From a virus (Duplodnaviria; Heunggongvirae; Uroviricota; Caudoviricetes), in the IMG/VR virus record IMGVR_UViG_2695420617_000013, positions 1 through 18,918 of that record: DNA of 18,918 nt. One strand, written 5' to 3'. Below, piece after piece: positions 1 through 16,096 of the stretch. The position numbers and the translations under genes were made by a program. Under the pieces are notes generated by a model. The model was not told the origin of the DNA and made no database searches. It was given only the letters and a program-made list of their open reading frames with translations. Numbering within the stretch: position 1 is the stretch's first letter; each line of letters opens with the position of its first letter.

Positions 1-1028
<1,028 letters not shown>

Positions 1029-1141
1029 GGATATTTATCAGGATTTATCGGCTTCAAATCCCCGGATATGTTAAATCTTACCTCACCAGTGATGGGCACT
1101 GGCGGGAGGAGGATGTCAATCTGATAAACACAGAGGCGACT

Positions 1142-1402
1142 ATGGATTACACAAATCTACCAAAACAAACTTTTGCTGATTTAATCGCACTCAGGCAAGC
1201 AGTCGTAGCTCTAATCAACTTGTTGCCGGAGAAGGAAAAGGAATTAGTTAAAGCGCTTCTTAACAGAACTGCCGCCGATTTTTCATCATATCCACTGACA
1301 GATGACCTTGCGGACCTTCCTGAATTAATTGCAGCGTCCGCCAATAAGCTTACTGAAGAGATTTACCCTCCTCAAAAATCTTCACAAAATTCCTGCGAGT
1401 AA
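1142..1402 (+). CDS. Hypothetical small acidic protein (86 aa), convergent with the lysis operon
   Basis: ATG preceded by GAGG at about 6-nt spacing (acagaggcgactATG). Followed 20 nt downstream by a strong intrinsic terminator on the same strand. No recognisable domain. Its 3' end overlaps the 3' end of the minus-strand ORF 1350..1901. Confidence 0.35.
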   Translation: MDYTNLPKQTFADLIALRQAVVALINLLPEKEKELVKALLNRTAADFSSYPLTDDLADLPELIAASANKLTEEIYPPQKSSQNSCE

Positions 1403-1901
1403 CTTCAATGCAATAATCGTAAAACGCCGCAAACTGCTCATCGCGGCGTTTTTTTTCATCTTCAGAAGGAATCAGCACCGACAATTTTTTATTCAGATCA
1501 GCGACGCTGCTCTCCAGTTTTTCAATGGGCGATTCAATATCATCTTTTTCTGACCGCAATGCCGTCGGTGGCGTCTTCAGAGAACCTGTAATTCTTCCCG
1601 GTAGCTTTCCTTTGTAGGTTATCCACACATTCTGCGCCTCTAAAATTACCGGGCGCTTTTCCGGCGACAGCTCATCTCCTTCACATAACCCGGCAGCAAC
1701 ATCCAGGAAGAACTGTCTGATGCTCCTTCTCGCTGCTGCCTCATAAAACTCCAGCGCGGCACCTTCAACACGGTCCAGCGAGATGTCCAGGTCAAAAATT
1801 TCACCGTCAAAGCGTTTTTTGTCCCGTAAGGCTACAGTTACCGCCACTTTATTCTCAAAATTGCGGACTCCTTTCACAACCAGTTCATAGTCTTGTGTCA
1901 T
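1350..1901 (-). CDS. Hypothetical protein encoded between holin and endolysin (YdfR-like position), 183 aa from the ATG at 1901
   Basis: Long ORF in the same orientation as the lysis genes. ATG at 1901 lies 5 nt after the holin stop; the ORF-track start at 1922 is TTG. No domain recognised. The position corresponds to ydfR between essQ and rrrQ in Qin, but this ORF is longer. Its 3' end overlaps the plus-strand terminator and the 86-aa ORF, so its true extent is uncertain. Confidence 0.5.
   Translation of the reverse strand: MTQDYELVVKGVRNFENKVAVTVALRDKKRFDGEIFDLDISLDRVEGAALEFYEAAARRSIRQFFLDVAAGLCEGDELSPEKRPVILEAQNVWITYKGKLPGRITGSLKTPPTALRSEKDDIESPIEKLESSVADLNKKLSVLIPSEDEKKRRDEQFAAFYDYCIEVTRRNFVKIFEEGKSLQ
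1423..1458 (+). terminator. Rho-independent terminator (GC stem cgccgc/gcggcg followed by T8)
   Basis: aacgccgc-aaactgctcatc-gcggcgtt followed by tttttttt, directly after the stop of the 1142..1402 ORF. On the minus strand the hairpin is followed by only a short U-tract, so it would be weak in the late direction. Confidence 0.55.
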
Positions 1902-1905
1902 TGGA

Positions 1906-2121
1906 TTACTCTCTTCTCGCAACCTTACGCCTGTCTTCTTTAATCTTGAAATAAAGGTTTGTCAGATACGTCAGCAGGCCAAAAACCAGACTACCCAGCA
2001 CACCGATTGCAGCCCACTGTGACGGAGTTACTTTATCGAGTAACTGCAATGCCCAGAAACCAGCATTACCAGCCGATGTGCCATAGGCGATACCTGTTGT
2101 TAACTTATCCATTGATTTCAT
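1906..2121 (-). CDS. essQ: Class II pinholin, S21-like, with dual-start motif (71 aa)
   Basis: [26 protein letters not shown]...[17 protein letters not shown] closely resembles phage 21 S / E. coli Ess holins. Two in-frame ATGs (M1 and M4) give the classic antiholin/holin dual start; two TM segments and a charged C-terminus. Confidence 0.85.
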
Positions 2122-2288
2122 ATCCTCACCCCGATGTACACAGATGGTGCAATATGTTTGAAAAGATCGGAGTCTATGGGTTAGTTTTTATAGCAAACGT
2201 TGTTCTCAACGGCGCTAAAAAACAGACACATTAAAAATGTGGGTAATTATTTTAAATGAAAATCATATATTAAATAATAATACGAGAT

Positions 2289-2510
2289 ATGTTTTCATAT
2301 TTAGTGTACTGTATACGGCTATTTATACAGGAAAAGCCTATGTCAGAACGTAAAGACTCAAAATCACGCCGTAATTATCTCGTTAAATGTTCCTGCCCAA
2401 ACTGCACCCAAGAGTCAGAACACAGTTTTTCAAGAGTACAAAAAGGTGCCCTTTTGATCTGCCCTCATTGCAACAAAGTATTCCAGACAAATCTTAAAGC
2501 TGTAGCTTGA
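2289..2510 (+). CDS. ydfK: Small Cys4 zinc-ribbon protein, YdfK/YnaE-like
   Basis: CSCPNC...CPHCNK four-Cys motif in a small basic protein. Two candidate ATG starts (2289; 2340 with an AGGA-like RBS). Followed by a bidirectional terminator at 2571-2595. Sits in the csp cluster of the prophage late region as in Qin/Rac. Confidence 0.55.
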   Translation: MFSYLVYCIRLFIQEKPMSERKDSKSRRNYLVKCSCPNCTQESEHSFSRVQKGALLICPHCNKVFQTNLKAVA

Positions 2511-2570
2511 TTGATTTTATTCGTAACAAGTATTTTTTATATTTTAATAACATATTTAAAGCAGATAATA

Positions 2571-2595
2571 AAAAACCCGCCTGAGCGGGTTTAAT
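2571..2595. terminator. Bidirectional intrinsic terminator (aaacccgc-ctga-gcgggttt)
   Basis: Perfect GC-rich hairpin flanked by an A-run upstream and a T-run downstream, so it can terminate both ydfK-like (+) and cspB (-) transcripts. Confidence 0.6.
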
Positions 2596-2873
2596 ATTGT
2601 GGTGCTTTTTGTGGGAGTCATCCACTTACGCACTTTGTTTTGCTATGCCAGCAGTTAGCTTCTGCTGTAAAACTATTCATGCAGCAAACCTGCACTTCAC
2701 CACAATGGTTAGCATACTTTTCCTGATTAAGTTATTGCCAAATATGCTGGCCATTGTTTCATGTATTGGACCTCCTTACTATTTATTAAAGAGATCCAAT
2801 ATTCACCACTCTGTCTGTATCTCCACTCAGGCATCAGCCTTCTTCGTTATCGTATACAGACAAACTATGAATT

Positions 2874-3089
2874 TTAATCAGTAATTATGACATTTGCTGC
2901 TGCAGGACCTTTAGCACCACTCTCTACAGAGAAGGTAACCTTTTGACCTTCAAATAAGGTTCGAAAATTATCATTCTGAATCGCAGAAAAATGCACAAAC
3001 ACATCTTTACTACCATCAACAGGAGAAATAAAGCCAAAACCTTTATCAGCGTTAAACCATTTTACTAAACCAGTCATTTTATTTGACAT
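2874..3089 (-). CDS. cspB: Cold-shock protein CspB (CspA family), 71 aa
   Basis: [38 protein letters not shown]... with RNP1/RNP2 motifs (KGFGFI, VFVHF); near-identical to E. coli CspB as recalled. Long AT-rich upstream region typical of cold-shock 5' UTRs. Confidence 0.9.
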
Positions 3090-3389
3090 TCTACATTCCT
3101 TAACTTGAGCCTTTCGGCATAAATGGCTTGTATAACAGAAACGACTTCGTACTTAATTGGAGAGACTCAAAGAAGGAATAAGTGAATAACACCTGAAATG
3201 AGAACTGCTTTAGTAAACTACTTCGTATATCGTCTGTTCTTCAAACCGACGCAATCATTAACGCATAGTTGAACATATGAAGCAATGTTTATTTTAGACA
3301 TCCAGCCATCTTCAACCCCATCAAAAAACTATAGCTTTCTTCAGGAAGGTGTGTATAGTGCGCCCAGTTATCAGTATTAAGGAATTTTT

Positions 3390-3602
3390 TTGTCCCGTAA
3401 AATGACAGGAATTGTCAAAACCTTTGACGGCAAAAGCGGCAAGGGTCTTATCACCCCATCCGATGGTCGTATCGATGTCCAGCTTCATGTTTCAGCGCTC
3501 AATCTCCGCGATGCAGAAGAAATTGCCACCGGATTACGCGTGGAATTTTGCCGGATAAATGGTCTGCGTGGCCCTTCAGCTGCCAATGTTTACCTTTCAT
3601 GA
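3390..3602 (+). CDS. cspF: Cold-shock-like protein CspF/CspH family, 70 aa
   Basis: [36 protein letters not shown]...[19 protein letters not shown] matches the CspF/CspH subfamily. TTG start as given in the ORF track. Divergent from cspB. Confidence 0.85.
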
Positions 3603-3895
3603 GCTATATTAAAGCTTTAATTTCAGGCCCCATCGAATCAAACATGGAGAGTTTTCATGGATAACCCCGTCTGTCTTGATGACTGGTTGATTGGCTTTAA
3701 AAGCTTATGCTGTACTTTGACCGTAATAGCTCTGCTAATAATGTAATAAGCAGACTCATTGTATCTAGGGACATTGTACTGGAAGAAAACATTTTAAACA
3801 TCAGGCAGAAAACAAAGTCACCCGATAAATAATAAGTAAACAAACATGAATCCCGAAATGAGATTCAACATCTCTATTACCCTATTTAAAGCACA

Positions 3896-3928
3896 AAAAC
3901 CCGCTCATCAGCGGGTTTTCTACTTTTT
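3896..3928. terminator. Intrinsic terminator hairpin (acccgct-catc-agcgggt) with flanking A/T runs; candidate tR-prime of the late leader
   Basis: 7-bp GC-rich stem, 4-nt loop, T-rich tract on the plus side and a shorter T tract on the minus side. Located about 100 nt downstream of the Q stop on the minus strand. Confidence 0.55.
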
Positions 3929-3931
3929 CTT

Positions 3932-4024
3932 AACGTCGGGTATACAAAGCCCATTGTTGAAAACACTTTATCCATATTTTTTGAAAAATGCAAGCATTAC
4001 GTCGCCATCTTCGGCGAAAATCAT
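3932..4024 (-). promoter_or_regulatory. Candidate late promoter (pR-prime-like) and qut region immediately downstream of Q
   Basis: On the minus strand: TTGCAT, 17-nt spacer, TAAAGT, followed about 50 nt later by the terminator hairpin. This position and architecture mirror lambda pR-prime/qut/tR-prime. Inference only. Confidence 0.3.
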
Positions 4025-4777
4025 TTATCTCGTCACTTTTCTTAATTGCACCTCAGCATATGCTTCTTCCTGCCAGCACTTTGTAACCAGTTTATCAATG
4101 ACATCTGCATATCCTGTGTACCACTGATAATCAGTCAGGGCTGGTACCAGCTTCTGGACATGACACCGCGCCAGTGTCGTTGGTAAACGACTAAACCGGT
4201 TTCCATTGCAACGCCCACAAATCTTATAAACAGGCGCGCCATGAAGCCGGGTCCTTTTTTCATCCAGGACAATACCTTTACCCTTACACCCTCTGCACGC
4301 TGTGCTGACTTCTCCCTTACCATGGCAATGCTGACATAGTTCCTTCACCCACTCTTCCTTGATAACAGATTCCCCGCTTCTGGAGTGTTTCACCACTTCG
4401 CGCAATACATTATGAAATCCAGTACCTGCACAATGCTCACAGCGAGCCTTACTTGCCGCAGACCTGGAATAATCAGCAAAGGCAAAATTCACAAGGTAAG
4501 GGATGATCTGTAACCGGATTTCTTCACTCAATTTATTCAATGTCGGGTTATCCAGTGCCATCGCGTAATTGAGCAGACCTTCAATCGCAAACTGAGGATC
4601 CTGAACACCAACTTTTGCCAGGAATAAGGCAAAACCCAGTGGTGCTTTCGACTGCACCATCCCCTGCGCAGCCATCACATCCGTAATCGTTAAACCACCC
4701 GAGCCTGTCGCCGGTGCGTCATCACTCAATTTTGGAGATTTTGGGGAGTAATATTTTGGTAAGGCTTCAAGGTTCAT
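4025..4777 (-). CDS. quuQ: Late-gene antitermination protein Q (250 aa from the ATG at 4777)
   Basis: Cys-rich zinc-binding region (CQHCHGKG...CRGCKGKG...CGRCNGNRF), with the position upstream of the late promoter and lysis genes. ATG at 4777 with GGAG RBS; the ORF-track start at 4819 is GTG. Confidence 0.8.
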   Translation of the reverse strand: MNLEALPKYYSPKSPKLSDDAPATGSGGLTITDVMAAQGMVQSKAPLGFALFLAKVGVQDPQFAIEGLLNYAMALDNPTLNKLSEEIRLQIIPYLVNFAFADYSRSAASKARCEHCAGTGFHNVLREVVKHSRSGESVIKEEWVKELCQHCHGKGEVSTACRGCKGKGIVLDEKRTRLHGAPVYKICGRCNGNRFSRLPTTLARCHVQKLVPALTDYQWYTGYADVIDKLVTKCWQEEAYAEVQLRKVTR

Positions 4778-4790
4778 GCTCGTTCTCCAC

Positions 4791-5786
4791 TTACGCCAGT
4801 ACGCCTGTTGCCAGCGCACGATCGATAAAACGAAATATCAGCTCCAGCTGGGAGCCATACTTCTCTTCAAATGCCACGGTATCCGCATGCAGCTCGTCGT
4901 GATGCTTTCTGCACAAAGGCAACACAAAGAGGTCATGCGCTTTTGTTCCCATTCCACCCTGACCGTGACCTATCAGGTGGTGGGGATCATCAGCAGGCTT
5001 TCCACAACATGCACACGGCTGTGTCTTAACCCAGCGCGTGTACTTTTCATTAACCCAGCGGCGACGTTTTGGGCGTAACATAAAAGACTCCGGCGACTCC
5101 GGATCCACTTTCAGCGCCAGCACCTTTTTTGCCTTATCCTGGATGATGCTGGTGGCAGGAACCGAAGGCACAAGGTCACTTTCCCGGGTGACAGACGGCA
5201 CAACAGGCTTTGGTAATCTCAGTGCCTTACGGGCTGCACTTTCCGGTAAGGCATCCGCCAGGTCATTACGAATCAGCCACCAGCACAGTTCCGGCATTGT
5301 CACAACGTGACTATCATCAAAACCGAGATCCCGACGCACAACAGACAACACCCAGCGGGCACAGTTATCCGTTGCCATTGATTCCAGCCGTTCCGTGAAC
5401 TGATCGCGCAGCTGGTTATCGCAGTGCCAGCACAGACGGATTGCGCCCGTAGCGTGTCGCATTGTTGTCATATTCTCGCTGTGCCAGTCGGAATGAGGCC
5501 ACTGGCAGCCTTTTTCACGAAGTAACCAGCTTTCAAGACATTCCACGCCACCAGCACGACGGATCACTGCCTCATTGCGGAACACGGCCCGAACGGCAGG
5601 ATCATCCGCCAGCGGTTGTGATGCCGCCGGAACGGCACCACTGGCGAAAGATGAATAACGTTCCGGCTCAGGCTCCAGCAGGACACGCCCCTGCATAAAC
5701 AAGGGCATCAGCTCTGAACCTGGTCTGAACAATACGATCCCCATACGCGGGGCAATTTCAGGGGTCAGTAGTGCTCTCACGGTCAC
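4791..5786 (-). CDS. ydfU: DUF968-family phage protein with C-terminal HNH-like Cys/His motif (YdfU-like)
   Basis: C-terminal PCACCGKPADDPHHLIGHGQGG...LCRKHHDELH zinc/HNH-like motif. Sits immediately upstream of Q as ydfU does in Qin. Start codon uncertain (GTG at 5786 or ATG at 5744). Confidence 0.65.
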   Translation of the reverse strand: MTVRALLTPEIAPRMGIVLFRPGSELMPLFMQGRVLLEPEPERYSSFASGAVPAASQPLADDPAVRAVFRNEAVIRRAGGVECLESWLLREKGCQWPHSDWHSENMTTMRHATGAIRLCWHCDNQLRDQFTERLESMATDNCARWVLSVVRRDLGFDDSHVVTMPELCWWLIRNDLADALPESAARKALRLPKPVVPSVTRESDLVPSVPATSIIQDKAKKVLALKVDPESPESFMLRPKRRRWVNEKYTRWVKTQPCACCGKPADDPHHLIGHGQGGMGTKAHDLFVLPLCRKHHDELHADTVAFEEKYGSQLELIFRFIDRALATGVLA

Positions 5787-5787
5787 C

Positions 5788-6603
5788 TCAATGAACGGTA
5801 TCGAGCAGCTTTAACAGCTCAGGGAATCGGGATTCGAAGAAATGCGGCTGCGTCTCGCGCGGATTTGCAGGACTGGTGATGTTCTTGCCGAACATGCAGC
5901 CTTTCGCGGTCAGCGACCAGAATTTTTTGATGTTGTTAATCGCGGTACGACTGTATCGTTCGCGTTGTTCAACGATCCCCAGCTTCGCCATCTGGTGATA
6001 TGCCTGATTAGCCGTCAGGCGGATACCATACTGCTTCAGCAGTGCACTCAGCGACAGCGTAGGGCGGCTTGAACCATCTGGCGCATCAGCAGGTGCATCA
6101 ATGGCATAGATCGGCATAAGTTCAGGAAGACCAGCTACCTTTGATAATTTCTGGTATGCACCAAGTTTCGAGGAGTTTGACAGATTTAGAGTCTTTGCTG
6201 CTGATTCAAGCAGAATGACCCCGGATTTAATTTTGTCGGATGTGGTTTCTTCTGGTGATGAATTATGAAGCGCATCAAAAGTACGTATCACTTTTAAGCT
6301 GAATGCCGGGCTGATCCACATTGCATATGCATAGACCAGCTCTTTACAGACATACGTCCCACCATTGCGCCCCTGAATGGTGATGACAGGAATACTACGG
6401 GAATCTCCCGTAGTTTCTTCTTCCAATAATTCCACAAGAGCCTTCGTTTCAGGACGACGCATAAACTCGTGAACTTCCAGCGAACGGGAGGAGCGATTCT
6501 CACCAGCGGCAAGAAGAGCAGCTTTCTGAAGGTCGTTAAGACAGTAGTTAGATTCGAAGTACTGGCGCACAGAAACGCCATCAATTACAAGCAACTGATT
6601 CAT
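5788..6603 (-). CDS. KilA-N domain protein (Roi/antirepressor-like DNA-binding protein)
   Basis: N-terminal region ...IQGRNGGTYVCKELVYAYAMWISPAFSLKVIRTFDAL matches the KilA-N/APSES-type domain signature. ATG at 6603 with GGAG RBS. Confidence 0.65.
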   Translation of the reverse strand: MNQLLVIDGVSVRQYFESNYCLNDLQKAALLAAGENRSSRSLEVHEFMRRPETKALVELLEEETTGDSRSIPVITIQGRNGGTYVCKELVYAYAMWISPAFSLKVIRTFDALHNSSPEETTSDKIKSGVILLESAAKTLNLSNSSKLGAYQKLSKVAGLPELMPIYAIDAPADAPDGSSRPTLSLSALLKQYGIRLTANQAYHQMAKLGIVEQRERYSRTAINNIKKFWSLTAKGCMFGKNITSPANPRETQPHFFESRFPELLKLLDTVH

Positions 6604-6765
6604 TGGTTTCTCCACAAATTTTTATCCACGAGCGGGACTGCACTCCCTTTTCGTTGATGCAGGATGAACTTACTGCGATTTTTAATAGTTATCAAGGATA
6701 CACTGTTCATAAATACAGTATCTTTAACGAGGTAATACCCAAATTTAGGGTGTTGCTCAATTCCG

Positions 6766-7161
6766 TTACCGAGTTGCTAATTTGCAACTCGCTTTTTCGT
6801 ACTTACTGATAGTGATCTCGACCTTCCCCTCCGGGATAACCGGTCCCCACTCCACCAGCATTCTTTTCACCTGACTGTCGTCTTCCCACACCCCCGCGTG
6901 GGTCAGGGCGTCAAACAGCGCCTTGTTATAGTTGTCCAGATCGCGGATCCGGTTATCCGGAGGAAACAACACGATCTCCACTGAAGCAGGTGCCGACGTT
7001 GGTTTCGGCAGACGACGTAACTGCTCAACTATTGCTGCACACGCCGCGCTCTGGAATTTTCGCCCCGCCGCGCTTATCAGGCTCTTACCAGCAAACGCCC
7101 CTTTGTTGGGGTGTCGCCAGTACGTGTTCACGCTGGGCGGAAAAGGCAGGATCAGCTTCAT
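6766..7161 (-). CDS. rusA: Holliday junction resolvase RusA
   Basis: RDLDNYNKALFDALTHAGVWEDDSQV matches the conserved RusA catalytic-Asp region. Start overlaps the upstream gene stop (translational coupling). Confidence 0.85.
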   Translation of the reverse strand: MKLILPFPPSVNTYWRHPNKGAFAGKSLISAAGRKFQSAACAAIVEQLRRLPKPTSAPASVEIVLFPPDNRIRDLDNYNKALFDALTHAGVWEDDSQVKRMLVEWGPVIPEGKVEITISKYEKASCKLATR

Positions 7162-7484
7162 ACTTTCAGGCCTCTCTCATGTAACCAATGGGCTGCACGC
7201 AGCCTGGCGTTTTCCTCACCGGCAAGCAGTGAGCGGATAATCCCGACCGCCTCGCTGTCGTCGTCCTTCACCACGGTATGAAGCGTGATCCCCCGGGCCA
7301 CACCACGCTTTATCGTGATGACGCCTTTTTTCTCCAGTGCGCGAAGATGCTCCACCGCTGCATTCACTGAACGGTATCCCAGCATGGTTGCCACCTCCTG
7401 ATTGGTTGGCGGGAAGCCACGTTCTTTCTGATAAGAAATCAGCATATCCAGCACCTGCTGCTGGCATTGAGTTAACGTCGTCAT
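7158..7484 (-). CDS. LexA N-terminal DNA-binding-domain-only protein (108 aa), lacking the S24 peptidase domain
   Basis: LTQCQQQVLDMLISYQKERGFPPTNQEVATMLGYRSVNAAVEHLRALEKKGVITIKRGVARGITL aligns residue-for-residue with the LexA winged-helix DNA-binding domain ([55 protein letters not shown]). No Ser/Lys autoprotease domain follows. Confidence 0.7.
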   Translation of the reverse strand: MTTLTQCQQQVLDMLISYQKERGFPPTNQEVATMLGYRSVNAAVEHLRALEKKGVITIKRGVARGITLHTVVKDDDSEAVGIIRSLLAGEENARLRAAHWLHERGLKV

Positions 7485-8134
7485 GCCGCCATCTCCCTGA
7501 CCAGTTTTTCCGCCTGCTGGCGAACCTGCGCCAGAAACACCTCACCACATGCCTCAAGTTCATCGCGCCCGATGTAGCTGATTGCCGGTCCCTTCCAGGT
7601 CTTGTCGAAAACAGCAATAGCACCAGCGAAGAAAGCGCCTGTCGGCACCTGCTTCTCATCCTTCGGGATAAACCAGGCAGGCAGTTCAAAACCAATACGC
7701 CCGCGAATAAAAGCAATATGATCTGCATCTTCCGGCCACCACACTTCGCTGGTGGCAGCTTTGATCAGGAAAACATAGCGCCCGCCTTTATCACGCATGG
7801 CACTGGCATGCTTCATGATGTAACGCATGCCGGTGATGTATTGCCCCTCATGCTGACTGGCGCGGCTGTATGGGGGATTACCAAAGGCAGCACCTTTAAG
7901 CTCCGCAAGACGTTCTGACCAGTCATGCGCCAGCGCGTTGTCTTCCGCCGTGTAATACGCGGCACATTTGGCGTTATCACCGTCAGTGAACAGATCCAGA
8001 ACAAACGGACCAAACAGGGTGTTAATTCCCCAGAAAATGTTATCCGGCGTGCGCCACTGATCGCCCACGTCCTTCAGTTCATGGGCTGGTTTGTTCCGCA
8101 GTTCCACCAGCGCCCGGCAATATTTATTACTCAT
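7481..8134 (-). CDS. Phage N6-adenine DNA methyltransferase (Dam-like)
   Basis: NPPY motif (AFGNPPYS) characteristic of N6-adenine methyltransferases. ATG at 8134 overlaps the upstream stop. Typical nin-region phage Dam. Confidence 0.8.
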   Translation of the reverse strand: MSNKYCRALVELRNKPAHELKDVGDQWRTPDNIFWGINTLFGPFVLDLFTDGDNAKCAAYYTAEDNALAHDWSERLAELKGAAFGNPPYSRASQHEGQYITGMRYIMKHASAMRDKGGRYVFLIKAATSEVWWPEDADHIAFIRGRIGFELPAWFIPKDEKQVPTGAFFAGAIAVFDKTWKGPAISYIGRDELEACGEVFLAQVRQQAEKLVREMAA

Positions 8135-8628
8135 TAAGCCCCCACGTAATTCCCTGACAGATACCACTCTTCACCCGATGCAGCGCGCTTGCTGCTTTTC
8201 CGTAAGCACCGCTCACGACGTGCCAGAAAATTGTTTCGTTCTGGCTGGGAGTGGCTTTCACGGAATGCCGCCATCCACACGGTTGCAGCACGACGGTATA
8301 AGCCCCTTGACTCCAGTTCTTCAGCCTGGCGGGTCAGGCACAAAATCACCCGTGGATCGTTAGTGCCGACATAGAAATTGCGCACAGGTCTGGTTTCACG
8401 AACTGGTTGTGGTTCCGGCTCCTGCGCTCTCTCAGTCAGGCGCGGGAAATGTCTGCGTGTATCTCCTTCACAACGGTGAGCCACACGCCCACTCTGACGT
8501 AACTTGCTTGCTGACTGCAGAACGCGCTGCCGTGAGTAACCTGCAAAAGCATCCGCAATGTCTCCGGAAGTACACCCCGGATGGGCTTCAATGAATTTCT
8601 GAACTTCATTCAAAAGACTCATAATCAC
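8134..8628 (-). CDS. PerC-like transcriptional regulator with N-terminal extension
   Basis: C-terminal half (AEELESRGLYRRAATVWMAAF...ERNNFLARRERCL) resembles the PerC/Pch family signature found in enterobacterial prophages. The N-terminal 60 aa are unassigned. Confidence 0.4.
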   Translation of the reverse strand: MIMSLLNEVQKFIEAHPGCTSGDIADAFAGYSRQRVLQSASKLRQSGRVAHRCEGDTRRHFPRLTERAQEPEPQPVRETRPVRNFYVGTNDPRVILCLTRQAEELESRGLYRRAATVWMAAFRESHSQPERNNFLARRERCLRKSSKRAASGEEWYLSGNYVGA

Positions 8629-9566
8629 CCCCTGAATCCTGCCGGGATCTGGCTGTAGTCCACGTTGTCGTAACTGGCTTTGAAGTACGGGTCTTCACGT
8701 TTTTCTGTGTGCGTGCTGACGGACGGCGATAAGCGCAGGGAAAGCTCATCCCATTTTTCCCGCAACTTCGACGGGCTGAGCACGTTACGGCACCAGAACG
8801 GATCGCGGCTGACGCGGCTGTACATCTCGCAGATTTGTTTGTGAGTACGACCATCCTGCACACACATCAGGCGAATTTCGTTTGCCCAGGCTGTCCAGTT
8901 AGGTTCTTTGGGACGAACCACCTCGCCGTCACATTCGGCGGCCTGCTCGTACAGGGCGATGATTTTTTTCCAGAGCCACTGTGCGCAGGTCAAATCATCC
9001 TGCGTCCCCCACTGGCGCTTTTTAGGGCTGAATACAACCGCATCAGGATGGCGAGTTAAAAAATCCTGTTCATCCGTCTGCGTGTCCGGTTGCGAAGCGT
9101 CCGGACGAGAAGGTTTTTTATCTGACGGATCATGTTTTGATTTTACTGACGGATCCCCGACAGATTCTGACGGGTGAAAACCCGCTTTTTTGCCAGATTT
9201 CGACGCATCAAATTTTGACGGGTCAGATTTTGATGCGTCAGATTTTGACGGGTCAGAATCTGACAGTTGAGAAAATGCCGCTGCCTGAAGCTTCGCAACG
9301 TTAAGCTGATAAACATTCGACGCATTGCGGTTACCCTGGCGACGCGCCTTACGCGTTAACCAGCCTTCTGCTTCCAGCCGTGCGATAGCCGTTCTGACGG
9401 TACTCATCCCCGCGCCAATCTGACGGGCAATGGTTTCAATTGATGGCCAGCACACACCTTCGTCATTACTGAAATCAGCCAGGCGGGCCATAATTGCCAC
9501 GCTGGATAACTTCATGCCTGACGCAGCGCAACCATCCCATACATAGCCGGTTAATTTAGTGCTCAT
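8625..9566 (-). CDS. Phage replication initiation protein (O-like), N-terminal wHTH with internal iteron-encoded linker
   Basis: N-terminal HTH (SIETIARQIGAGMSTVRTAIARLEAEGWL), a linker encoded by tandem DNA repeats (SDPSKSDASKSDPSKFDASKS), and a Trp-rich C-terminal domain. Position downstream of cro/cII-like genes matches the lambda O slot. No P- or DnaC-like loader gene follows. Confidence 0.6.
   Translation of the reverse strand: MSTKLTGYVWDGCAASGMKLSSVAIMARLADFSNDEGVCWPSIETIARQIGAGMSTVRTAIARLEAEGWLTRKARRQGNRNASNVYQLNVAKLQAAAFSQLSDSDPSKSDASKSDPSKFDASKSGKKAGFHPSESVGDPSVKSKHDPSDKKPSRPDASQPDTQTDEQDFLTRHPDAVVFSPKKRQWGTQDDLTCAQWLWKKIIALYEQAAECDGEVVRPKEPNWTAWANEIRLMCVQDGRTHKQICEMYSRVSRDPFWCRNVLSPSKLREKWDELSLRLSPSVSTHTEKREDPYFKASYDNVDYSQIPAGFRG
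9121..9265. repeat. Iteron-like direct repeats (candidate replication origin) inside the replication initiator gene
   Basis: About eight copies of a TGACGG(G/A)T-type motif, including three tandem 15-bp units (attttgacgggtcag / attttgatgcgtcag / attttgacgggtcag) at 9211-9255, with AT-richer sequence on one side. This mirrors ori-lambda lying within O. Confidence 0.55.
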
Positions 9567-9575
9567 GACCGACCT

Positions 9576-9914
9576 CTATTTCCCTGAATTTACGACGAAA
9601 CTGTTCGAGCGGACTGAAGCATTCATGCTCATAGCCTTCGCGGAGGTAGATAACCCGTTGTGTTTCCGGCTCCCAACGAATGACTCTGACGGGTACTCCG
9701 TAGTGATCTTTGAACCAGCGGTTAATTTGACGCAAAGGACTGTCTCCTTCTGCCGGTTGAAATCACCCACAGCCCACTCTGCAAAGCTGTGGGTTACAAT
9801 TTCCCTGTCACCTGGTACATTCACTGCATAGCAATACTCCACCTTCGCTTTTCCACCCGGTACAGGAAGCGCAATCAGTTGCGAGCGACGGTAGGGTGTT
9901 GTTAAACTGTTCAT
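9576..9914 (-). CDS. Hypothetical protein (112 aa), translationally coupled upstream of the replication gene
   Basis: Stop TAG lies 9 nt before the initiator ATG, and the strand matches the operon. No domain recognised. An alternative plus-strand ORF (9559..9831) overlaps and was judged less likely. Confidence 0.35.
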
Positions 9915-10525
9915 GCGTTAGTTTCTCCACAATTAGAAGCAATCGACGCCACGACGCCCGGAGCTGCACACTCGCGGGCGTCATTACTTTCTGAAATGCA
10001 AAAGATTTTGTAGACCAGTGCTGCATGCTCCTGCAGCTTCGAAATTGACAGGTACAGTTCGTCGTTAATTGCTGCCTGCTCGTGTGGTTCCACCACCCCG
10101 TCTTCAATTGCTGAACGAATCTGTTTTGAATAACTGCCGATCTGTTCAATGACCTCCAGCAGGCGTTGGTTTATATCGGCGTTCTCTACTTCCTCAATTT
10201 CAGGAAGCGATACAAACACCCCACCAGCAGACTGTGCGACTGCATCCGCAATGTGGTGAGTGCCAGCAGCACGCTGTAAAACCATTGCCCATCCCAGCGG
10301 GAAAATCTGATCGCCATCGGCACGAAGGCGGTTAAATAATGCGTTCTCTGTTACATCCAGCCAGTCAGCAGCTTCAGCGTAACCCCCCGGCAATGCCGCG
10401 ATAGTTTTTCTGACAGCTTTCACGTACCACTCAGGCTGTTTTTCTACTTTCCAGTGATGCTTACCCACGGTTAGCCTCATCGTTCTGTGGTTTCTGTTAA
10501 TCGATTTATCCATTAGATTTTTCAT
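9911..10525 (-). CDS. YdaT-like / cII-position regulatory protein
   Basis: Occupies the slot directly after the cro-like gene, as ydaT does in Rac-type prophages. Start assigned to the internal ATG at 10525 to limit overlap with cro; the ORF-track start is 10582. Family assignment is from position and general resemblance only. Confidence 0.4.
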
Positions 10526-10706
10526 AAAGCTCAGGTTTAAATGGCAACCGTCCGCAAGTTCTATATGCAGCTTCTGCTGCACGTCCTTTTGGAATTAACT
10601 GGCCCGGACGGTTTCGCCACTGATAAACGGCTTCAGTTGTTATGCCGAAAAAAGCAGCAACTTTCTCAATACTGCCGAAGTAGCTTTCGATATCGTCAGT
10701 TGTCAT
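10506..10706 (-). CDS. Cro-like HTH repressor (66 aa)
   Basis: Small HTH protein (FGITTEAVYQWRNRPGQ) transcribed divergently from the cI-like repressor. Strong GGAGGG RBS upstream. Confidence 0.6.
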   Translation of the reverse strand: MTTDDIESYFGSIEKVAAFFGITTEAVYQWRNRPGQLIPKGRAAEAAYRTCGRLPFKPELYEKSNG

Positions 10707-10803
10707 ACGCCCTCCAAACTAAGTTTTATTAGATGCTAATTACAAATCTATCTTTGGTCAATAAAAACTAAGATTACTTAGCAATTCAAGAAATGGTGCT
10801 CCT
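10707..10803. promoter_or_regulatory. Immunity-region operator/promoter (OR-like) between cro-like and cI-like genes
   Basis: 97-bp AT-rich divergent intergenic region with repeated CTAAG/CTTAG half-sites (e.g. CTAAGATTACTTAG, CTAAGTTTTATTAG) and a TTGACC -35-like element for the cro-direction promoter. Confidence 0.4.
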
Positions 10804-11430
10804 ATGGAAACGGTTGGTCAGCGTATAAAAGCTCTGAGAAGAGTTACCAGAACGTCCCAGAAAGAATTGGGTAAATTTTGTGGAGTAAGCGACGTTGCTG
10901 TGGGGTACTGGGAGAAAGACATCAATACCCCTGGTGGGGAGGCACTTTCGAAATTAGCGAAGTTCTTCAATACGTCAATAGATTACATTCTTTATGGTGC
11001 TGAGTTTGAAGGCAAACTCGTCACAAACATGCGCAGAGTTCCTGTAATATCGTGGGTTCAGGCTGGGCAGTTTACTGAGTGCAGGGCAGCAGAAGTGTTT
11101 AGTGAAGTGGACAAGTGGGTAGATACATCATTAAAGATTGGTGATAACTCATTTGCATTAGAGGTTAAAGGTGACTCCATGACTAACCCTAATGGCCTCC
11201 CAACAATACCAGAAGGCGCAACAGTGATTGTAGATCCAGATGCAGAACCTCGTCATGGAAAAATAGTCATCGCTCGACTTGATGGAACAAACGAAGCTAC
11301 AGTAAAAAAATTAGTCATCGATGGCCCTCAAAAGTTTTTAGTGCCATTAAATCCTCGGTATCCCAACATCCCTATCAATGGTAATTGCCTTATCATTGGT
11401 GTAGTCAAAGGAGTTCAATACGAACTCTAA
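10804..11430 (+). CDS. CI-like prophage repressor (HTH-XRE N-terminus, S24 LexA-like autopeptidase C-terminus), 208 aa
   Basis: N-terminal HTH (SQKELGKFCGVSDVAVGYWEKD). C-terminal S24 signature with the Ser nucleophile in GDSM and a downstream Lys (VKKL). Implies a RecA/SOS-cleavable repressor. Confidence 0.9.
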   Translation: METVGQRIKALRRVTRTSQKELGKFCGVSDVAVGYWEKDINTPGGEALSKLAKFFNTSIDYILYGAEFEGKLVTNMRRVPVISWVQAGQFTECRAAEVFSEVDKWVDTSLKIGDNSFALEVKGDSMTNPNGLPTIPEGATVIVDPDAEPRHGKIVIARLDGTNEATVKKLVIDGPQKFLVPLNPRYPNIPINGNCLIIGVVKGVQYEL

Positions 11431-11439
11431 GACCTCTCT

Positions 11440-11632
11440 TCTCTAACTAAGGCACCGAACTAAGAAAAGTTTGGTGTTTTCTCTTGCTATAATAACTAAG
11501 TTAAGTTAGATTTTATATCAAAGATAACGAACAGGCAGGACGCCCACGAAGTAGCCGCCGGTGGCGTATGAATGACCGGATGATTCGTTAGCAACAAAAA
11601 AAGCGCCCTATAGGACGCTTCGCTCTTTAACA
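11440..11632 (+). promoter_or_regulatory. Candidate pL-like promoter/operator region with rrn-type boxA-like motif
   Basis: CTAAG operator-like repeats (aactaaggcaccgaactaag; aactaagttaagttag) flank an extended -10 (tTGcTATAAT) near 11484-11492. Downstream motif GCTCTTTAACAA at about 11618-11629 matches the core of the boxA element as I recall it, preceded by a palindrome gcgccctataggacgc. Confidence 0.3.
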
Positions 11633-11664
11633 ATCCTGGTATCCCCGTAACAAAAGAGGGTTCT

Positions 11665-11958
11665 ATGGTCATATTCTGTGCTTACGTTCATCCTAATGGA
11701 TTTTTTATCAGCACCAACCAACAAGACGAATTCTGGATTCTACTTAGTAAGCAGGTCGGATGGGGACGATTCTGTCTAATCCGACCAGAATCAGAATTTA
11801 CAGAGAATGGAGGGCTTTTTGAATTACGTGAAATACGTCCGGCAGATGGTCAAGCCCCTGACCAAGTAATCGAATCGTCAGCTGTTTTATGGCGTCGGCA
11901 GGAAGCGTTCGAAGCTGAGAGAGTAATTTCTTCTTATCTTCAGTCGTGGCAGAAGTAG
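11665..11958 (+). CDS. Hypothetical protein (97 aa), first ORF downstream of the putative pL
   Basis: Good RBS (aaagagggttctATG). No recognisable domain and not Arg-rich (not N-like). Its 3' 160 nt overlap the convergent ORF 11798..12301, so one of the two may be mis-called. Confidence 0.35.
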   Translation: MVIFCAYVHPNGFFISTNQQDEFWILLSKQVGWGRFCLIRPESEFTENGGLFELREIRPADGQAPDQVIESSAVLWRRQEAFEAERVISSYLQSWQK

Positions 11959-12301
11959 AACTATTGATGATACGTTCAAGTTCACAGAGAGTCTCATCAT
12001 GCAATCTTATTGTCATAATCCCAAGAATAGCTTTAAGACCTCCATCATCACGAATGAAATCAATTCCATCTTTAGTAATTCTTAATTCAGGAATATTTAT
12101 ATTTATGCCATCCAAGTAATAATCAAGAGCATTCTTAATCAAGCCATGTTCTTCGAGATAAATTAAGTTCGAAATTAGGACATTATCATCTCCAAATGCG
12201 TCACGAACAGACTGCAACGCATCATCAGAAATTTCATAAGGATGAGCATCATACAGTATTTGTAACAACTGCCTTTGTGCACTTCTATCAAATTTGTCCA
12301 T
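11798..12301 (-). CDS. Hypothetical AT-rich protein with predicted winged-helix motif (DUF2513-like?), convergent with the cI/pL direction
   Basis: Strongly AT-rich coding sequence (about 11960-12300) versus GC-balanced flanks. Motif NLIYLEEHGLIKN resembles a wHTH recognition helix. Opposite orientation to all neighbours. A hairpin (ggtcggat...atccgacc) follows its stop. Confidence 0.5.
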   Translation of the reverse strand: MDKFDRSAQRQLLQILYDAHPYEISDDALQSVRDAFGDDNVLISNLIYLEEHGLIKNALDYYLDGININIPELRITKDGIDFIRDDGGLKAILGIMTIRLHDETLCELERIINSSTSATTEDKKKLLSQLRTLPADAIKQLTIRLLGQGLDHLPDVFHVIQKALHSL

Positions 12302-12579
12302 CTTAAATAATCACCATGTTATTGGGGTTATCAAGATTAACCGAATCCTTGTTGTTGGGGAATAACCAGGTCCACCTCGCCTGATGTGGCTAAAAGCAGG
12401 CACATAACAGCTAAGTATTTTCAACCAGAGAGAATCCTTAGCGTTGTGGTGAATGCGGCTCAGCGCACGCGGGTTAAGGTTGAGGCTGACAGTCGACCTT
12501 CTGTGGATACCCACCCGCCTGGTGTGCAACCTTCGCCAGGCACCGGGAGGCACCCGGCACCACAACAGCCACTGCTTTG

Positions 12580-12714
12580 GCGGTACCAGTTTGTACACTT
12601 GCTTCCGGCTGGTACCGCTCTTTTTACAAAACAGAGAAGAGCATCACCGGACGACGGGCTCATAACCCAATCCACCCGGGCGGCTGCCACCGCAGGTGTT
12701 CTTCTCTGTTTTGT
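12580..12714 (+). promoter_or_regulatory. Structured leader: terminator-like hairpin plus long imperfect inverted repeat upstream of the yfdP-like operon
   Basis: Hairpin cggtaccag-(loop)-ctggtaccg followed by ctcttttt (12582-12625). Immediately after, acaaaacagagaaga...tcttctctgttttgt forms a 15-bp perfect stem extended by 4 more bp across a bulge, enclosing a 46-nt GC-rich loop. The terminator U-tract (ctcttttt) overlaps sequence complementary to the second stem (agaagag), so the two structures are mutually exclusive. boxA-like CGCTCTTTTTAC at about 12617. Confidence 0.4.
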
Positions 12715-12762
12715 GGAGAAACCAACCGACCTTGCAGGGTCGATATGATGAGGAGCAGCAAA

Positions 12763-13125
12763 ATGGCTAGCGAACGCAGTACTGATGTGCAGGCATTTAT
12801 CGGGGAGCTGGACGGCGGCGTATTTGAAACCAAAATCGGCGCAGTTCTCAGTGAAGTCGCTTCCGGTGTGATGAACACGAAAACCAAAGGGAAGGTCTCA
12901 CTCAATCTGGAAATCGAACCGTTTGATGAGAACCGTGTGAAAATCAAACACAAACTCTCATATGTTCGCCCGACTAACCGCGGGAAAATTTCCGAAGAAG
13001 ACACCACCGAAACGCCGATGTATGTCAATCGCGGTGGTCGCCTGACTATTCTGCAGGAAGACCAGGGACAATTACTGACTCTTGCCGGTGAACCTGACGG
13101 AAAACTCCGCGCAGCAGGTCATTAA
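12763..13125 (+). CDS. YfdP-like phage early protein (120 aa)
   Basis: ATG with GAGGAG RBS, directly upstream of the yfdQ/yfdR/yfdS-like genes in the same order as the CPS-53 (KplE1) prophage cluster as I recall it. The ORF-track start at 12577 lies in the structured GC-rich leader and is rejected. Confidence 0.55.
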   Translation: MASERSTDVQAFIGELDGGVFETKIGAVLSEVASGVMNTKTKGKVSLNLEIEPFDENRVKIKHKLSYVRPTNRGKISEEDTTETPMYVNRGGRLTILQEDQGQLLTLAGEPDGKLRAAGH

Positions 13126-13190
13126 TATCGTTTTTAATTAACTGATTATTTATCTCATCACTGAATATTTTTATATAGTGAGGACTTATT

Positions 13191-14015
13191 ATGTCTCAGA
13201 ACTTAGACGCAACCGCAATTAATCAAATCCATGCCCTTATTTCTGCTCAGGGTGTTAATGAAATTATCAGTAAGATTGGTGCCGATGCTGTGGCATTGCC
13301 TGAGAATTTCCGCATTCATGATCTGGAAAAATTTAATTTAAATCGTTTCCGTTTCCGTGGTGCGCTTTCCACTGCCAGCATCGATGACTTTACCCGTTAT
13401 TCTAAAGATCTTGCAGATGAAGGCACCCGCTGCTTTATCGATGCCGATAATATGCGTGCCGTCAGTGTGCTTAACCTGGGTACTATTGATGAACCAGGTC
13501 ACGCAGATAACACCGCCACTCTCAAACTGAAAAAGACAGCACCGTTCTCTGCTCTGTTGTATGTTAATGGCGAGCGTAACTCCCAGAAATCACTGGCAGA
13601 ATGGATTGAAGACTGGGCCGACTACCTTGTGGGCTTTGATGCTAATGGTGACACCATTCAGGCAACAAAAGCGGCTGCGGCGGTCCGTAAAATCACGATT
13701 GAAGCAAACCAGACTGCTGATTTTGAAGATAATGACTTCAGCGGCAAACGCTCCCTGATGGAGTCTGTCGAAGCGAAGACCAAAGACATTATGCCAGTGG
13801 CATTTGAGTTTAAATGCGTTCCGTTTGAAGGTCTGAAAGAACGTCCGTTTAAATTACGCCTCAGCATTATCACTGGCGATCGTCCGGTACTGGTTCTGCG
13901 CATTATTCAGCTGGAAGCGGTGCAGGAAGATATGGCTAACGAATTTCGTGATCTGCTTGTTGAGAAATTCAAGGACAGCAAAGTAGAAACCTTTATTGGG
14001 ACTTTCACCGCCTGA
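13191..14015 (+). CDS. yfdQ: YfdQ-like protein (DUF2303 family), 274 aa
   Basis: Length and sequence character match E. coli prophage YfdQ as recalled. GAGGA RBS. Conserved gene order with the HD-domain YfdR homolog downstream. Confidence 0.7.
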
Positions 14016-14027
14016 TTTCATTACTGC

Positions 14028-14049
14028 AAATGCCCCTGCGGGGGCATTT
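14028..14049. other. Perfect 9-bp-stem hairpin (aaatgcccc-tgcg-ggggcattt) between yfdQ-like and yfdR-like genes
   Basis: Seen directly in the sequence. Lacks a long U-tract, so it is a weak terminator at best; could be an attenuator or RNA processing/stability element. Confidence 0.3.
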
Positions 14050-14142
14050 ATGGAAACATAATTGACTCAATAATCGCCTGATGGCGAGGGTTTTCTTTAA
14101 CCAAAATTCAGCGCGGTGCAGCGCATATACGTGGAGAACAAA

Positions 14143-14679
14143 ATGTCATTTATTAAAACTTTTTCCGGGAAGCATTTTTATTATGACAAGATAAATAAAG
14201 ACGACATCGTGATTAACGATATCGCGGTTTCCCTTTCAAATATCTGTCGCTTTGCAGGACATCTTTCACACTTCTACAGTGTCGCCCAGCATGCAGTGCT
14301 TTGCAGCCAACTGGTGCCGCAGGAATTTGCTTTTGAAGCGTTAATGCATGATGCAACAGAAGCGTATTGCCAGGACATCCCCGCACCACTGAAACGACTT
14401 CTTCCTGACTATAAACGGATGGAAGAAAAAATAGACGCCGTAATCCGTGAGAAATACGGGTTACCTCCTGTTATGAGCACGCCAGTGAAATATGCCGATC
14501 TCATTATGCTGGCAACCGAACGCCGCGATCTCGGACTTGATGATGGCTCTTTCTGGCCTGTATTGGAAGGTATCCCGGCAACAGAGATGTTCAAAGTTAT
14601 TCCACTGTCGCCAGGTCATGCCTACGGGATGTTTATGGAACGTTTTAACGAGTTATCGGAGTTACGCAAATGCGCATGA
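14143..14679 (+). CDS. yfdR: HD-domain 5'-deoxynucleotidase, YfdR-like (178 aa)
   Basis: HD phosphohydrolase motifs (H...LMHDATEAY) and 178-aa length from the ATG at 14143 with GGAGA RBS. The ORF-track start at 14116 is upstream of the RBS. Confidence 0.8.
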   Translation: MSFIKTFSGKHFYYDKINKDDIVINDIAVSLSNICRFAGHLSHFYSVAQHAVLCSQLVPQEFAFEALMHDATEAYCQDIPAPLKRLLPDYKRMEEKIDAVIREKYGLPPVMSTPVKYADLIMLATERRDLGLDDGSFWPVLEGIPATEMFKVIPLSPGHAYGMFMERFNELSELRKCA

Positions 14680-15032
14680 ATGTTTTCGAAATGGAAGGGT
14701 TTCTTCGCGGGAAATGTGTACCGCGAGATCTGAAAGTGAACGAAACAAATGCTGAGTACCTGGTACGTAAATTCGACGCGCTTGAAGCTAAATGTGCGGC
14801 ACTGGAAAACAAAATAATACCAGTGTCAGCTGAATTGCCACCTGCAAATGAAAGTGTTCTGTTATTTGATGCTAACGGAGAAGGCTGGCTGATTGGCTGG
14901 CGTTCTCTCTGGTACACCTGGGGACAAAAGGAAACCGGAGAATGGCAGTGGACATTTCAGGTCGGGGATCTTGAAAACGTCAATATCACTCACTGGGCAG
15001 TAATACCAAAGGCACCGGAGGCAGGGGCATAA
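14670..15032 (+). CDS. yfdS: YfdS-like phage protein (120 aa)
   Basis: Start overlaps the yfdR-like stop (ATGCGCATGA). Same length and position as YfdS in the yfdPQRST cluster. Confidence 0.6.
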   Translation: MRMNVFEMEGFLRGKCVPRDLKVNETNAEYLVRKFDALEAKCAALENKIIPVSAELPPANESVLLFDANGEGWLIGWRSLWYTWGQKETGEWQWTFQVGDLENVNITHWAVIPKAPEAGA

Positions 15033-15900: not shown

Positions 15901-16096
15901 CAATCAGACTGTCCGCTTTGTGTTGAAGCGGACATTGCCGCAGCGACTTGTCTTAGCCATAAATAACCAAAACGATGCGCTGTTCATATAAAGTTCTTTT
16001 AAACTTCAAATCAGTAATTTTTGTCTAAATCTTTTCAAACTCATAAAAACCAGTAAGATAAGAAATCACCTTTACCTGTTTTTATGAGAGGCATAA

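Follow-up and report, generated by a model that had tools for sequence, protein, structure and literature searches.

The lysis region of the Qin prophage of Escherichia coli K-12, in which essQ, ydfR, rrrQ and rzpQ follow one another, is the closest described relative of the locus that we discuss here. The locus lies in an 18.9-kb Qin-like E. coli prophage, IMG/VR record IMGVR_UViG_2695420617_000013 (positions 1 to 18,918; this whole stretch is hereafter the window), and our subject is an open reading frame (ORF) of 86 amino acids (aa), ORF86, which runs against the late operon between the holin and endolysin genes. Gene order and gene families are as in K-12 Qin, and the first ~70 codons of ydfR are nearly identical, after which the alignment breaks off. 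In K-12, however, ydfR encodes 103 aa and abuts rrrQ; the C-terminal helical module, the hairpin and the convergent ORF are all missing. The late strand of the window is the minus strand, on which essQ (1906-2121) is followed by a 183-aa ydfR-like ORF (1350-1901) and rrrQ (495-1028). Positions 900-2300 are 100% identical to several E. coli chromosomes, and the same gene arrangement is present in the sequenced Escherichia phages 2H10, PhiR12 group, PhiR5_1 and PhiR63_1.

Phage 21 offers another comparison. EssQ, like S21, is a Phage_holin_2_1 protein with an MKSM dual start, and RrrQ, like R21, is a lysozyme (177 aa) whose N-terminus resembles the signal anchor of signal-arrest-release (SAR) endolysins. 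The S, R and Rz genes of phage 21 are adjacent, whereas the window has two extra genes between the counterparts of S and R. An earlier reading of this DNA, made from the sequence alone (the original prediction), regarded the intervening genes as an oddity, on the ground that canonical pinholin and SAR-endolysin cassettes have none. We disagree: essQ-ydfR-rrrQ is simply the K-12 Qin order, and parts of the lysis region of the window match 5149 of 5426 complete E. coli genomes. The holin, the lysozyme and a DUF2514 protein of the window are all confirmed by Pfam.

Two further groups of described systems are relevant to ORF86 itself. Hendrix and Juhala reportedly introduced the concept of the moron for accessory genes of the late region of a phage that bring a promoter and a terminator of their own. 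The lambda morons bor and lom are, like ORF86, extra genes of lower G+C content that are present or absent among related phages and lie in or beside the lysis genes; ORF86 also has a Shine-Dalgarno sequence of its own, a promoter-like element and a hairpin with a T-run. Like bor, it is transcribed against the late operon. ORF86 differs from both in lying inside the cassette, between holin and endolysin, with a 53-nucleotide (nt) overlap with a late gene and a hairpin within the coding sequence of that gene. This geometry, in which convergent units overlap over tens of nucleotides and the terminator hairpin of one (for ORF86 a candidate) falls within the other, is shared with lambda oop/cII and with txpA/RatA and bsrG/SR4 of Bacillus subtilis prophages, which are convergent antisense pairs overlapping at their 3' ends. 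In contrast to those pairs, the unit in the window encodes a conserved protein under purifying selection, and its partner is not a small hydrophobic toxin. We considered a type I toxin-antitoxin or cis-antisense RNA pair and rejected it: the plus-strand unit codes for a conserved protein, no Rfam family was found (over 800-2400 Rfam returned only a chance-level match to GcvB, E = 0.64) and the partner is hydrophilic, so that only the geometry is common.

The interval holds two real genes on opposite strands and is not one operon with an odd insertion. On balance we lean towards the picture of ORF86 as a self-contained accessory, or moron, cassette transcribed against the late operon. Such a gene in a lambdoid late region is of a well-known kind, and ORF86 has already been catalogued, as a hypothetical protein of the NCBI Prokaryotic Genome Annotation Pipeline (PGAP) and as PHROG 2572. 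The features of the region, in which essQ and rrrQ are the borders of what we call the slot, are as follows.

1-498, minus strand: rzpQ, after the PGAP annotation of strain 631, whose prophage is identical over the lysis region.
495-1028, minus strand: rrrQ, SAR-type endolysin of 177 aa, downstream border of the slot (Pfam Phage_lysozyme, E = 2.6e-24; PGAP rrrQ lysozyme).
1031-1072, plus strand: promoter-like element, with hexamers and 17-nt spacing kept in eight cassettes.
1076-1115, plus strand: predicted stem-loop of the 5' leader, from folding against shuffled sequences.
1133-1136, plus strand: Shine-Dalgarno sequence GAGG, 5 nt upstream of the ORF86 ATG, read directly from the sequence.
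1142-1402, plus strand: ORF86, 86 aa, acidic, three predicted helices; PGAP hypothetical protein WP_001557934.1, PHROG 2572.
1350-1402, both strands: 53-nt overlap of the 3' ends of ORF86 and the ydfR-like gene, from the ORF coordinates.
1421-1456, plus strand: hairpin of 10 bp with a 12-nt loop and T8, from folding; candidate ORF86 terminator inside the ydfR-like coding sequence.
1350-1565, minus strand: helical module encoded at the C-terminal end of the ydfR-like gene (residues 113-183), from homology to a stand-alone gene in allele B (see below).
1566-1901, minus strand: DUF1327 part of the ydfR-like gene, residues 1-112 (Pfam PF07041).
1906-2121, minus strand: essQ, class II holin (pinholin) of the phage 21 type with the MKSM dual-start motif, upstream border of the slot (Pfam Phage_holin_2_1, E = 7.3e-34; PGAP essQ).

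The original prediction described an acidic 86-aa plus-strand ORF with a good ribosome-binding site, and this is what we find: ORF86 has an isoelectric point of 4.57 and a net charge of -5.5, and its GAGG is kept in 72 of the 75 copies examined. The protein matches PHROG 2572, a family without assigned function, over positions 1-86 of 86 (E = 4.4e-53). An exhaustive HMMER search added two diverged relatives, P0200 and P0201 (93 and 89 aa, E = 9e-14 and 2e-11), which are 41-49% identical; these relatives define alleles B and C, and the window type is allele A. The ratio of nonsynonymous to synonymous substitution rates (dN/dS) between the three alleles is 0.10-0.34, and the differences at codon positions 1/2/3 (16/11/21, 25/11/27 and 15/10/24) follow the order position 2 < position 1 < position 3 throughout. 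This order matters because an antisense frame whose wobble positions coincide with those of ORF86 is open over most of its length too; the plus frame is the one that the order favours, and the BLOSUM sums across alleles are highest there as well. The minus-strand ORF at 1147-1344 was also considered as the true gene and was rejected on the codon-position order, its lower BLOSUM sums, stop codons in two alleles and a choice of TTG-only starts without a Shine-Dalgarno sequence.

All three alleles encode acidic proteins (net charge about -5.4) and keep the Shine-Dalgarno sequence and the start codon. Of 35 independent copies from metagenomes, 34 have the ORF intact; the metagenome scan returned no further alleles. 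AlphaFold2 models three helices (predicted local distance difference test, pLDDT, 72) from a shallow alignment, and with these helices and a grand average of hydropathy (GRAVY) of -0.20 the protein would appear to be soluble. We are confident that ORF86 is a real protein-coding gene. Two details of its sequence deserve mention. The first ~75 nt (1142-1219) are nearly invariant at all codon positions in the copies from E. coli and Salmonella, while the remainder varies; recent recombination across this tract or a constraint at the nucleotide level could be the cause. Alleles A and B share a rare AGG codon.

The partner of ORF86 on the late strand was described in the original prediction as a 183-aa ORF of unknown function. 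Its presence is not in doubt, but it is not an orphan. The ORF as listed spans 1350-1922 and would encode 190 aa from a TTG start; because the homologues begin with MTQ(N/D)YEL, we take the ATG at 1901 as the true start, which gives 183 aa with the stop codon at 1350-1352. Pfam PF07041 (DUF1327) matches residues 8-119 of the 190-aa reading with 144.9 bits against a cut-off of 25, phrog_2091 matches the 183-aa protein over its full length (E = 4.6e-111), and the gene occupies the place between a class II holin and an endolysin in which DUF1327 genes are found in lambdoid lysis cassettes. It is therefore a member of the YdfR/DUF1327 family, a mosaic family with forms of 103, 114-116, 176, 183, 211, 268, 296 and 305 aa. 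The 176- and 211-aa variants differ from the 183-aa form by in-frame indels, with the frame kept throughout, and retain the same C-terminus, from which we conclude that the ORF is read to its end. PGAP labels 1566-1901 as a YdfR family pseudogene, "missing C-terminus", and does likewise in CFT073 (L122) and others. Full-length 183-aa homologues are common and the gene is intact; the pseudogene call probably arose as an artefact because the family model is short, and it is worth correcting.

The 183-aa protein is hydrophilic (GRAVY -0.76). Its AlphaFold2 model has three strands and a helix in residues 1-72 (pLDDT ~70-82), followed by a stretch and C-terminal helices of low confidence, and beyond residue 72 the model is too poor for a fold search. 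K-12 YdfR binds the N-terminal domain (the catalytic half) of RNase E by way of residues 1-72, and RNA is recovered along with the purified protein (PMC13232886, 2026). The first ~70 codons, which cover the region of this binding surface, are conserved in the gene of the window.

How the C-terminal part should be seen becomes clear from the diverged alleles. The small gene of allele B (L103, L110) follows the spanin gene, ahead of that for the small terminase, and converges with a stand-alone late-strand gene of 73 aa, whose product matches residues 149-183 of the YdfR-like protein of the window (43% identity over 35 aa, E = 3e-5). Given this stand-alone homologue, the C-terminal ~70 aa of the 183-aa ORF are a separate module, matched by phrog_36381 and phrog_15975, that has been fused to DUF1327; judged by sequence comparison, the gene is composed of a DUF1327 N-terminal part and a predicted helical module of ~70 aa that occurs elsewhere as a small gene of its own. 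Allele C (L117) has the layout of the window, with the holin, a 243-aa YdfR, the convergent small gene and the endolysin. The small gene of each allele converges on a homologous or equivalent helical late-strand module, the 3' ends overlapping by 53 nt in allele A and by 59 nt in both B and C; module and ORF86-family gene are inherited as a pair. In the window no intergenic space separates the two genes, so they overlap over their final 18 codons and the hairpin forms part of the coding sequence of the ydfR-like gene. Neither the overlap nor this position of the hairpin was part of the original prediction.

The hairpin begins 18 nt past the stop codon of ORF86. Its 5' arm AAAACGCCGC (1421-1430) and 3' arm GCGGCGTTTT (1443-1452) form a stem of six G-C and four A-U pairs around a 12-nt loop, the run of eight T (1449-1456) has four of its residues within the stem, and in the ydfR-like frame the element encodes KKRRDEQFAAFY. 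Folded alone on the plus strand it reaches -14.6 kcal/mol (z = -4.75, with none of 200 shuffles as good), and within a 76-nt context z is only -1.5. The original prediction saw here a strong intrinsic terminator, a stem plus T8, that would be weak in the late direction. Stem and T8 are indeed present. The adjective is harder to defend: canonical intrinsic terminators have a G+C-rich stem, a loop of 3-8 nt and a U-tract directly after the stem, the loop here is longer, and a consensus terminator scan did not report the site. As to the late direction, the hairpin is thermodynamically stronger there (-18.7 against -14.6 kcal/mol alone, -23.1 against -17 in context), and only a free U-tract after the stem is missing.

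Comparison with related prophages, proposed at the outset as a check on homology, structure and conservation, shows that ORF86 and its relatives are conserved, as is the core of the hairpin, while the T-run is not. Nine variants, drawn from the three alleles, retain an 8-bp core that starts 18-24 nt past the stop of the small gene. In allele C the arms read ACGCCACC/GGTGGCGT instead of the ACGCCGC/GCGGCGT found elsewhere, a compensatory change from G-C to A-U that entails two substitutions (R to H and A to V) in the late-strand protein. The T-run is T8 in the window, T7 or T5CTT in other A-type copies, TTTCTGTTC in allele B and TTGTCGCTC in allele C. The 296-aa form of YdfR, which has no convergent gene, has no hairpin either, owing to a deletion of five codons. 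We regard the hairpin as a selected nucleic-acid element that is tied to the helical module; for the plus-strand transcript of ORF86 it is a candidate terminator.

Between the endolysin start and ORF86 there are 113 nt, which contain the A/T-rich ATATTTATCAGG, TTTATC (1044-1049), a 17-nt spacer and TATGTT (1067-1072); transcription would start at ~1079-1081. TTTATC-17-TATGTT occurs once in the window, the pattern having been derived from this same site. It is kept, with a variable spacer sequence, in all eight cassettes compared (alleles A, B and C of ORF86, and ORF90, ORF106 and ORF210, described below), and allele B keeps it without an adjacent endolysin gene. Loci of the K-12 and 296-aa types have neither a cassette nor the element, and their endolysins manage without it; the element therefore belongs to the convergent cassettes, for which it may serve as a promoter. 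In the leader that follows, CCAGTG (1086-1091) pairs with CACTGG (1097-1102) as the core of a stem-loop, and the whole leader of ORF86 folds at -23.2 kcal/mol (z = -2.8, none of 200 shuffles as good). The leaders of allele B, allele C and ORF90 also open with a stem-loop, of other sequence and with a weaker z of -1.0 to -1.9, so that a conserved leader structure is suggestive only.

The same slot, with the same promoter-like element, is occupied in other loci by three further ORFs, each of them convergent and placed between ydfR and the endolysin gene, ORF90 behind a 114-aa YdfR.

L100, 2311-2583, minus strand, and L120, 1201-1473, in C41(DE3), a BL21-derived strain: ORF90.
L088, 717-1037, plus strand: ORF106.
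L099, 962-1591, minus strand: ORF210, of ~210 aa.

Neither blastp nor hhalign detects homology among the four cargo ORFs, and scans of the other three against Pfam, NCBIfam and PADLOC returned nothing meaningful. Among the 5426 complete E. coli genomes ORF86 is present in 364, ORF90 in 622 (C41(DE3) included), ORF106 in 27 and ORF210 in 133, the last mostly in Shiga toxin-producing E. coli and mostly unannotated; with the four cassettes counted separately this amounts to about one fifth of the genomes. At the position beside the endolysin start, unrelated convergent cargo ORFs replace one another.

Natural deletions at this site are a separate observation. The direct repeats GGATAT (1029-1034 and 1064-1069) and (A)TGGAT(T) (1041-1048 and 1142-1149) flank deletions that remove the -35 region in L086 and the whole ORF86 leader in L091. 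In L094 (2501-2695), a Salmonella enterica contig, the equivalent of 1219-1455 is cleanly deleted, with the loss of ORF86 codons 26-86 and of the hairpin, and the ydfR-like gene is fused to the antisense frame of the 5' part of ORF86.

The original suggestion of a moron is supported in part, though not as to the lysis and defence roles attached to it. ORF86 is a real gene that stands apart from the late operon and is present or absent at one position: it is missing from K-12 Qin and from the loci of the 296-aa type, and alternative cargo may fill the slot. It has its own Shine-Dalgarno sequence, an upstream promoter-like element and a hairpin with a T-run, and the G+C content is mildly lower (0.415-0.43 across 1001-1500, against 0.50-0.55 in rrrQ and in the DUF1327 part). 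We can imagine its expression as follows. RNA polymerase would start at TTTATC-17-TATGTT, a weak promoter of the sigma-70 type that lies 16-44 nt from the endolysin start codon and faces away from it, and would make a transcript with a leader of ~60 nt opening with the stem-loop. ORF86 would be translated from its GAGG, and transcription would end, or the 3' end would be protected, at the hairpin and T8. From what is established about lambdoid late transcription, a Q-modified polymerase, together with ribosomes on the ydfR-like gene, would pass the hairpin in the late direction during lytic growth. Heavy late transcription would silence or occlude the weak opposing promoter, which would confine most synthesis of ORF86 to periods of late-operon silence, namely the prophage state or the early phase of infection. 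As to what the protein does, we would guess that it acts in the cytoplasm as a binder or inhibitor, perhaps of the co-inherited late-strand partner.

A bolder version of this idea can be formulated. The ORF86-family gene and the overlapped helical module could be a conserved, mobile two-gene switch that moves between lysis cassettes, with mutually exclusive convergent transcription through the shared hairpin embedded in the coding sequence; in the prophage state ORF86 would neutralise or guard against its partner, a part of an RNase E-binding YdfR protein, or guard against leaky transcription of the SAR endolysin, and the promoter-bearing site beside the endolysin start would be a general insertion point for cargo that opposes the late operon. 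We offer this as speculation and think it quite improbable.

Several points weigh against the picture of an accessory cassette. The promoter-like element agrees with the consensus at 7 of 12 positions and was not reported by a consensus scan. The covariation count of the hairpin is non-significant (115 of 500 shuffles reach it), and the loss of the T-run in alleles B and C and loops of 10-12 nt are both atypical of an efficient intrinsic terminator. One locus, L088, keeps the hairpin ~500 nt beyond the end of a different convergent ORF. ORF86 has no blastp homology to the other slot ORFs (hhalign E = 0.12, probability 0.5%). It is also decaying in places: L086 lacks the -35 hexamer, L091 lacks the whole leader and 7 of 75 loci have ACG for ATG, from which it follows that the gene is dispensable and on its way out in some prophages. 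Searches of the literature for DUF1327, the phage names and the protein accessions returned nothing on expression or function except the paper on the RNase E interaction. Finally, copies within E. coli carry no signal at the codon level (dN/dS 0.68-0.75 on only 13-14 differences, no better than in other frames).

This last point, together with the decay variants, the largely open antisense frame and the restriction of ORF86 to E. coli in a scan of 185,579 species with one genome apiece (which also gave no new alleles), could be taken to mean that ORF86 is a non-functional chance or decaying ORF in a recently spread mosaic segment. Recent spread we accept, since synonymous divergence of ORF86 in E. 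coli is only 0.067 against up to 0.37 for rrrQ in the same loci. Within E. coli, however, dN/dS is uninformative, as the differences are few and the wobble-coincident antisense frame scores the same, and the question is settled only through the remote alleles, where the low dN/dS, the order of codon positions, the conserved Shine-Dalgarno sequence and start codon and the modelled fold all speak for a gene; we give lack of function little credence. The hairpin permits a more serious objection. Its principal function might lie in the late mRNA, as a site for processing or stability or as a partial attenuator by which holin and YdfR are balanced against endolysin; its position after the ORF86 stop would then be a by-product of the partner gene having stayed collinear. 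Its greater stability on the late strand, its conservation in L088 far from the nearest convergent ORF, the loss of the plus-strand T-run from alleles B and C (in the latter the late-strand stem is instead followed by UUUGUUG) and the binding of RNase E and co-purification with RNA of K-12 YdfR (PMC13232886) all fit. On the contrary, the stem lies inside a translated late ORF and ribosomes should melt it, the 296-aa variant without a convergent ORF is also without the hairpin, and T-runs are at their best (T7-T8) where the end of a convergent gene lies immediately upstream, in the A-type copies of ORF86 and in ORF210. We consider such a role doubtful, yet the one most deserving of attention among the alternatives, and it is compatible with an accessory cassette.

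It is also conceivable that the antisense transcript, or convergent transcription itself, is the working product, which would block leaky read-through into rrrQ in the lysogen and pair with the 3' ~100 nt of ydfR mRNA. SAR endolysins can lyse cells without a holin, so a leak would be costly; unrelated cargo ORFs have the promoter-like element, the position and the orientation in common; overlap (53-59 nt) and hairpin give ~105 nt of complementarity with ydfR mRNA; and the near-invariance of the first 75 nt of ORF86 would fit as well. We nevertheless find it unlikely, given purifying selection on the protein across alleles, the intact ORF in nearly all metagenome copies and the fact that prophages of the K-12 and 296-aa types manage without such a cassette. 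Should the protein be the product, the original prediction offered a lysis regulator, an antiholin-like factor or a defence gene, and none of these gains support from our searches: ORF86 has no match in Pfam, NCBIfam or PADLOC, and the "DUF1823" label that it bears in PhiR12 phage records was not reproduced by Pfam at E <= 0.1. A timing factor or an inhibitor of endolysin or pinholin would agree with the confinement of the family, in all three alleles, to lysis cassettes or their end, and with its co-inheritance with the helical module. But there is no similarity to a holin family in Pfam and the protein has a soluble look, on the basis of GRAVY and the modelled helices (no dedicated transmembrane prediction was run); a gene opposing the late operon should be least abundant when lysis is timed, and losses of start codon and leader are tolerated in some copies. 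We think a regulator of lysis quite improbable. Still less probable, in our opinion, is a defence or counter-defence protein, such as a superinfection-exclusion factor or an anti-CRISPR-like inhibitor. ORF86 is small, acidic and helical and is built like a prophage-expressed gene, and AcrIIC4 (PDB 7f7p, 8hns), similar in size and all-helical, is the top Foldseek match in the PDB (E = 2.4) with a weak collinear match over residues 25-86 (E = 0.12-0.14 with hidden Markov models) that includes an LP...K.L...FSS motif. Yet hhalign gives a probability of 9% over 25 columns, and the AcrIIC4 lead was not confirmed; PADLOC at E <= 0.1 has no match for ORF86, ORF90, ORF106, ORF210 or the 183-aa protein. 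To our knowledge, E. coli has no type II-C CRISPR system.

Some neighbouring features may be recorded here. A 98-aa ORF at 51-347 on the minus strand, out of frame within rzpQ and with a lipobox-like LTSC motif, is probably the o-spanin gene, equivalent to rzoQ; it is absent from the annotation of strain 631. Beyond essQ the PGAP annotation of that strain continues with ynfU, cspB, cspF and the Q antiterminator gene, and then on to the integrase. The coordinates listed for ynfU, cspB and cspF, which lie between the Q antiterminator gene and the holin gene, are 2340-2510 (plus), 2874-3089 (minus) and 3390-3602 (plus). A terminator-like hairpin with a T-run on the late strand (2573-2592, minus) lies just upstream of essQ, and late transcripts must read through it. 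At the end of the prophage, adjoining the integrase gene (17695-18918, minus), a gene of the deoxyguanosinetriphosphate triphosphohydrolase family (16097-17323, plus) may be a prophage-borne defence gene acting by nucleotide depletion.

The locus is for the most part ordinary, and lambdoid prophages of E. coli are routinely annotated with a ydfR between holin and endolysin. Our searches of the literature returned nothing on the ORF86 family, on a convergent pair with a hairpin embedded in coding sequence or on the cargo slot. What we add is that ORF86 is a genuine gene family with diverged relatives, that it is always convergent with, and overlaps at its 3' end, a helical late-strand module whose coding sequence contains a conserved hairpin, and that several unrelated convergent ORFs sit at the spot beside the endolysin start behind a shared promoter-like element. 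If ORF86 is expressed in lysogens, it would provide a handle on the silencing of SAR-endolysin cassettes, and likewise on the role of YdfR, recently reported to bind RNase E (PMC13232886).

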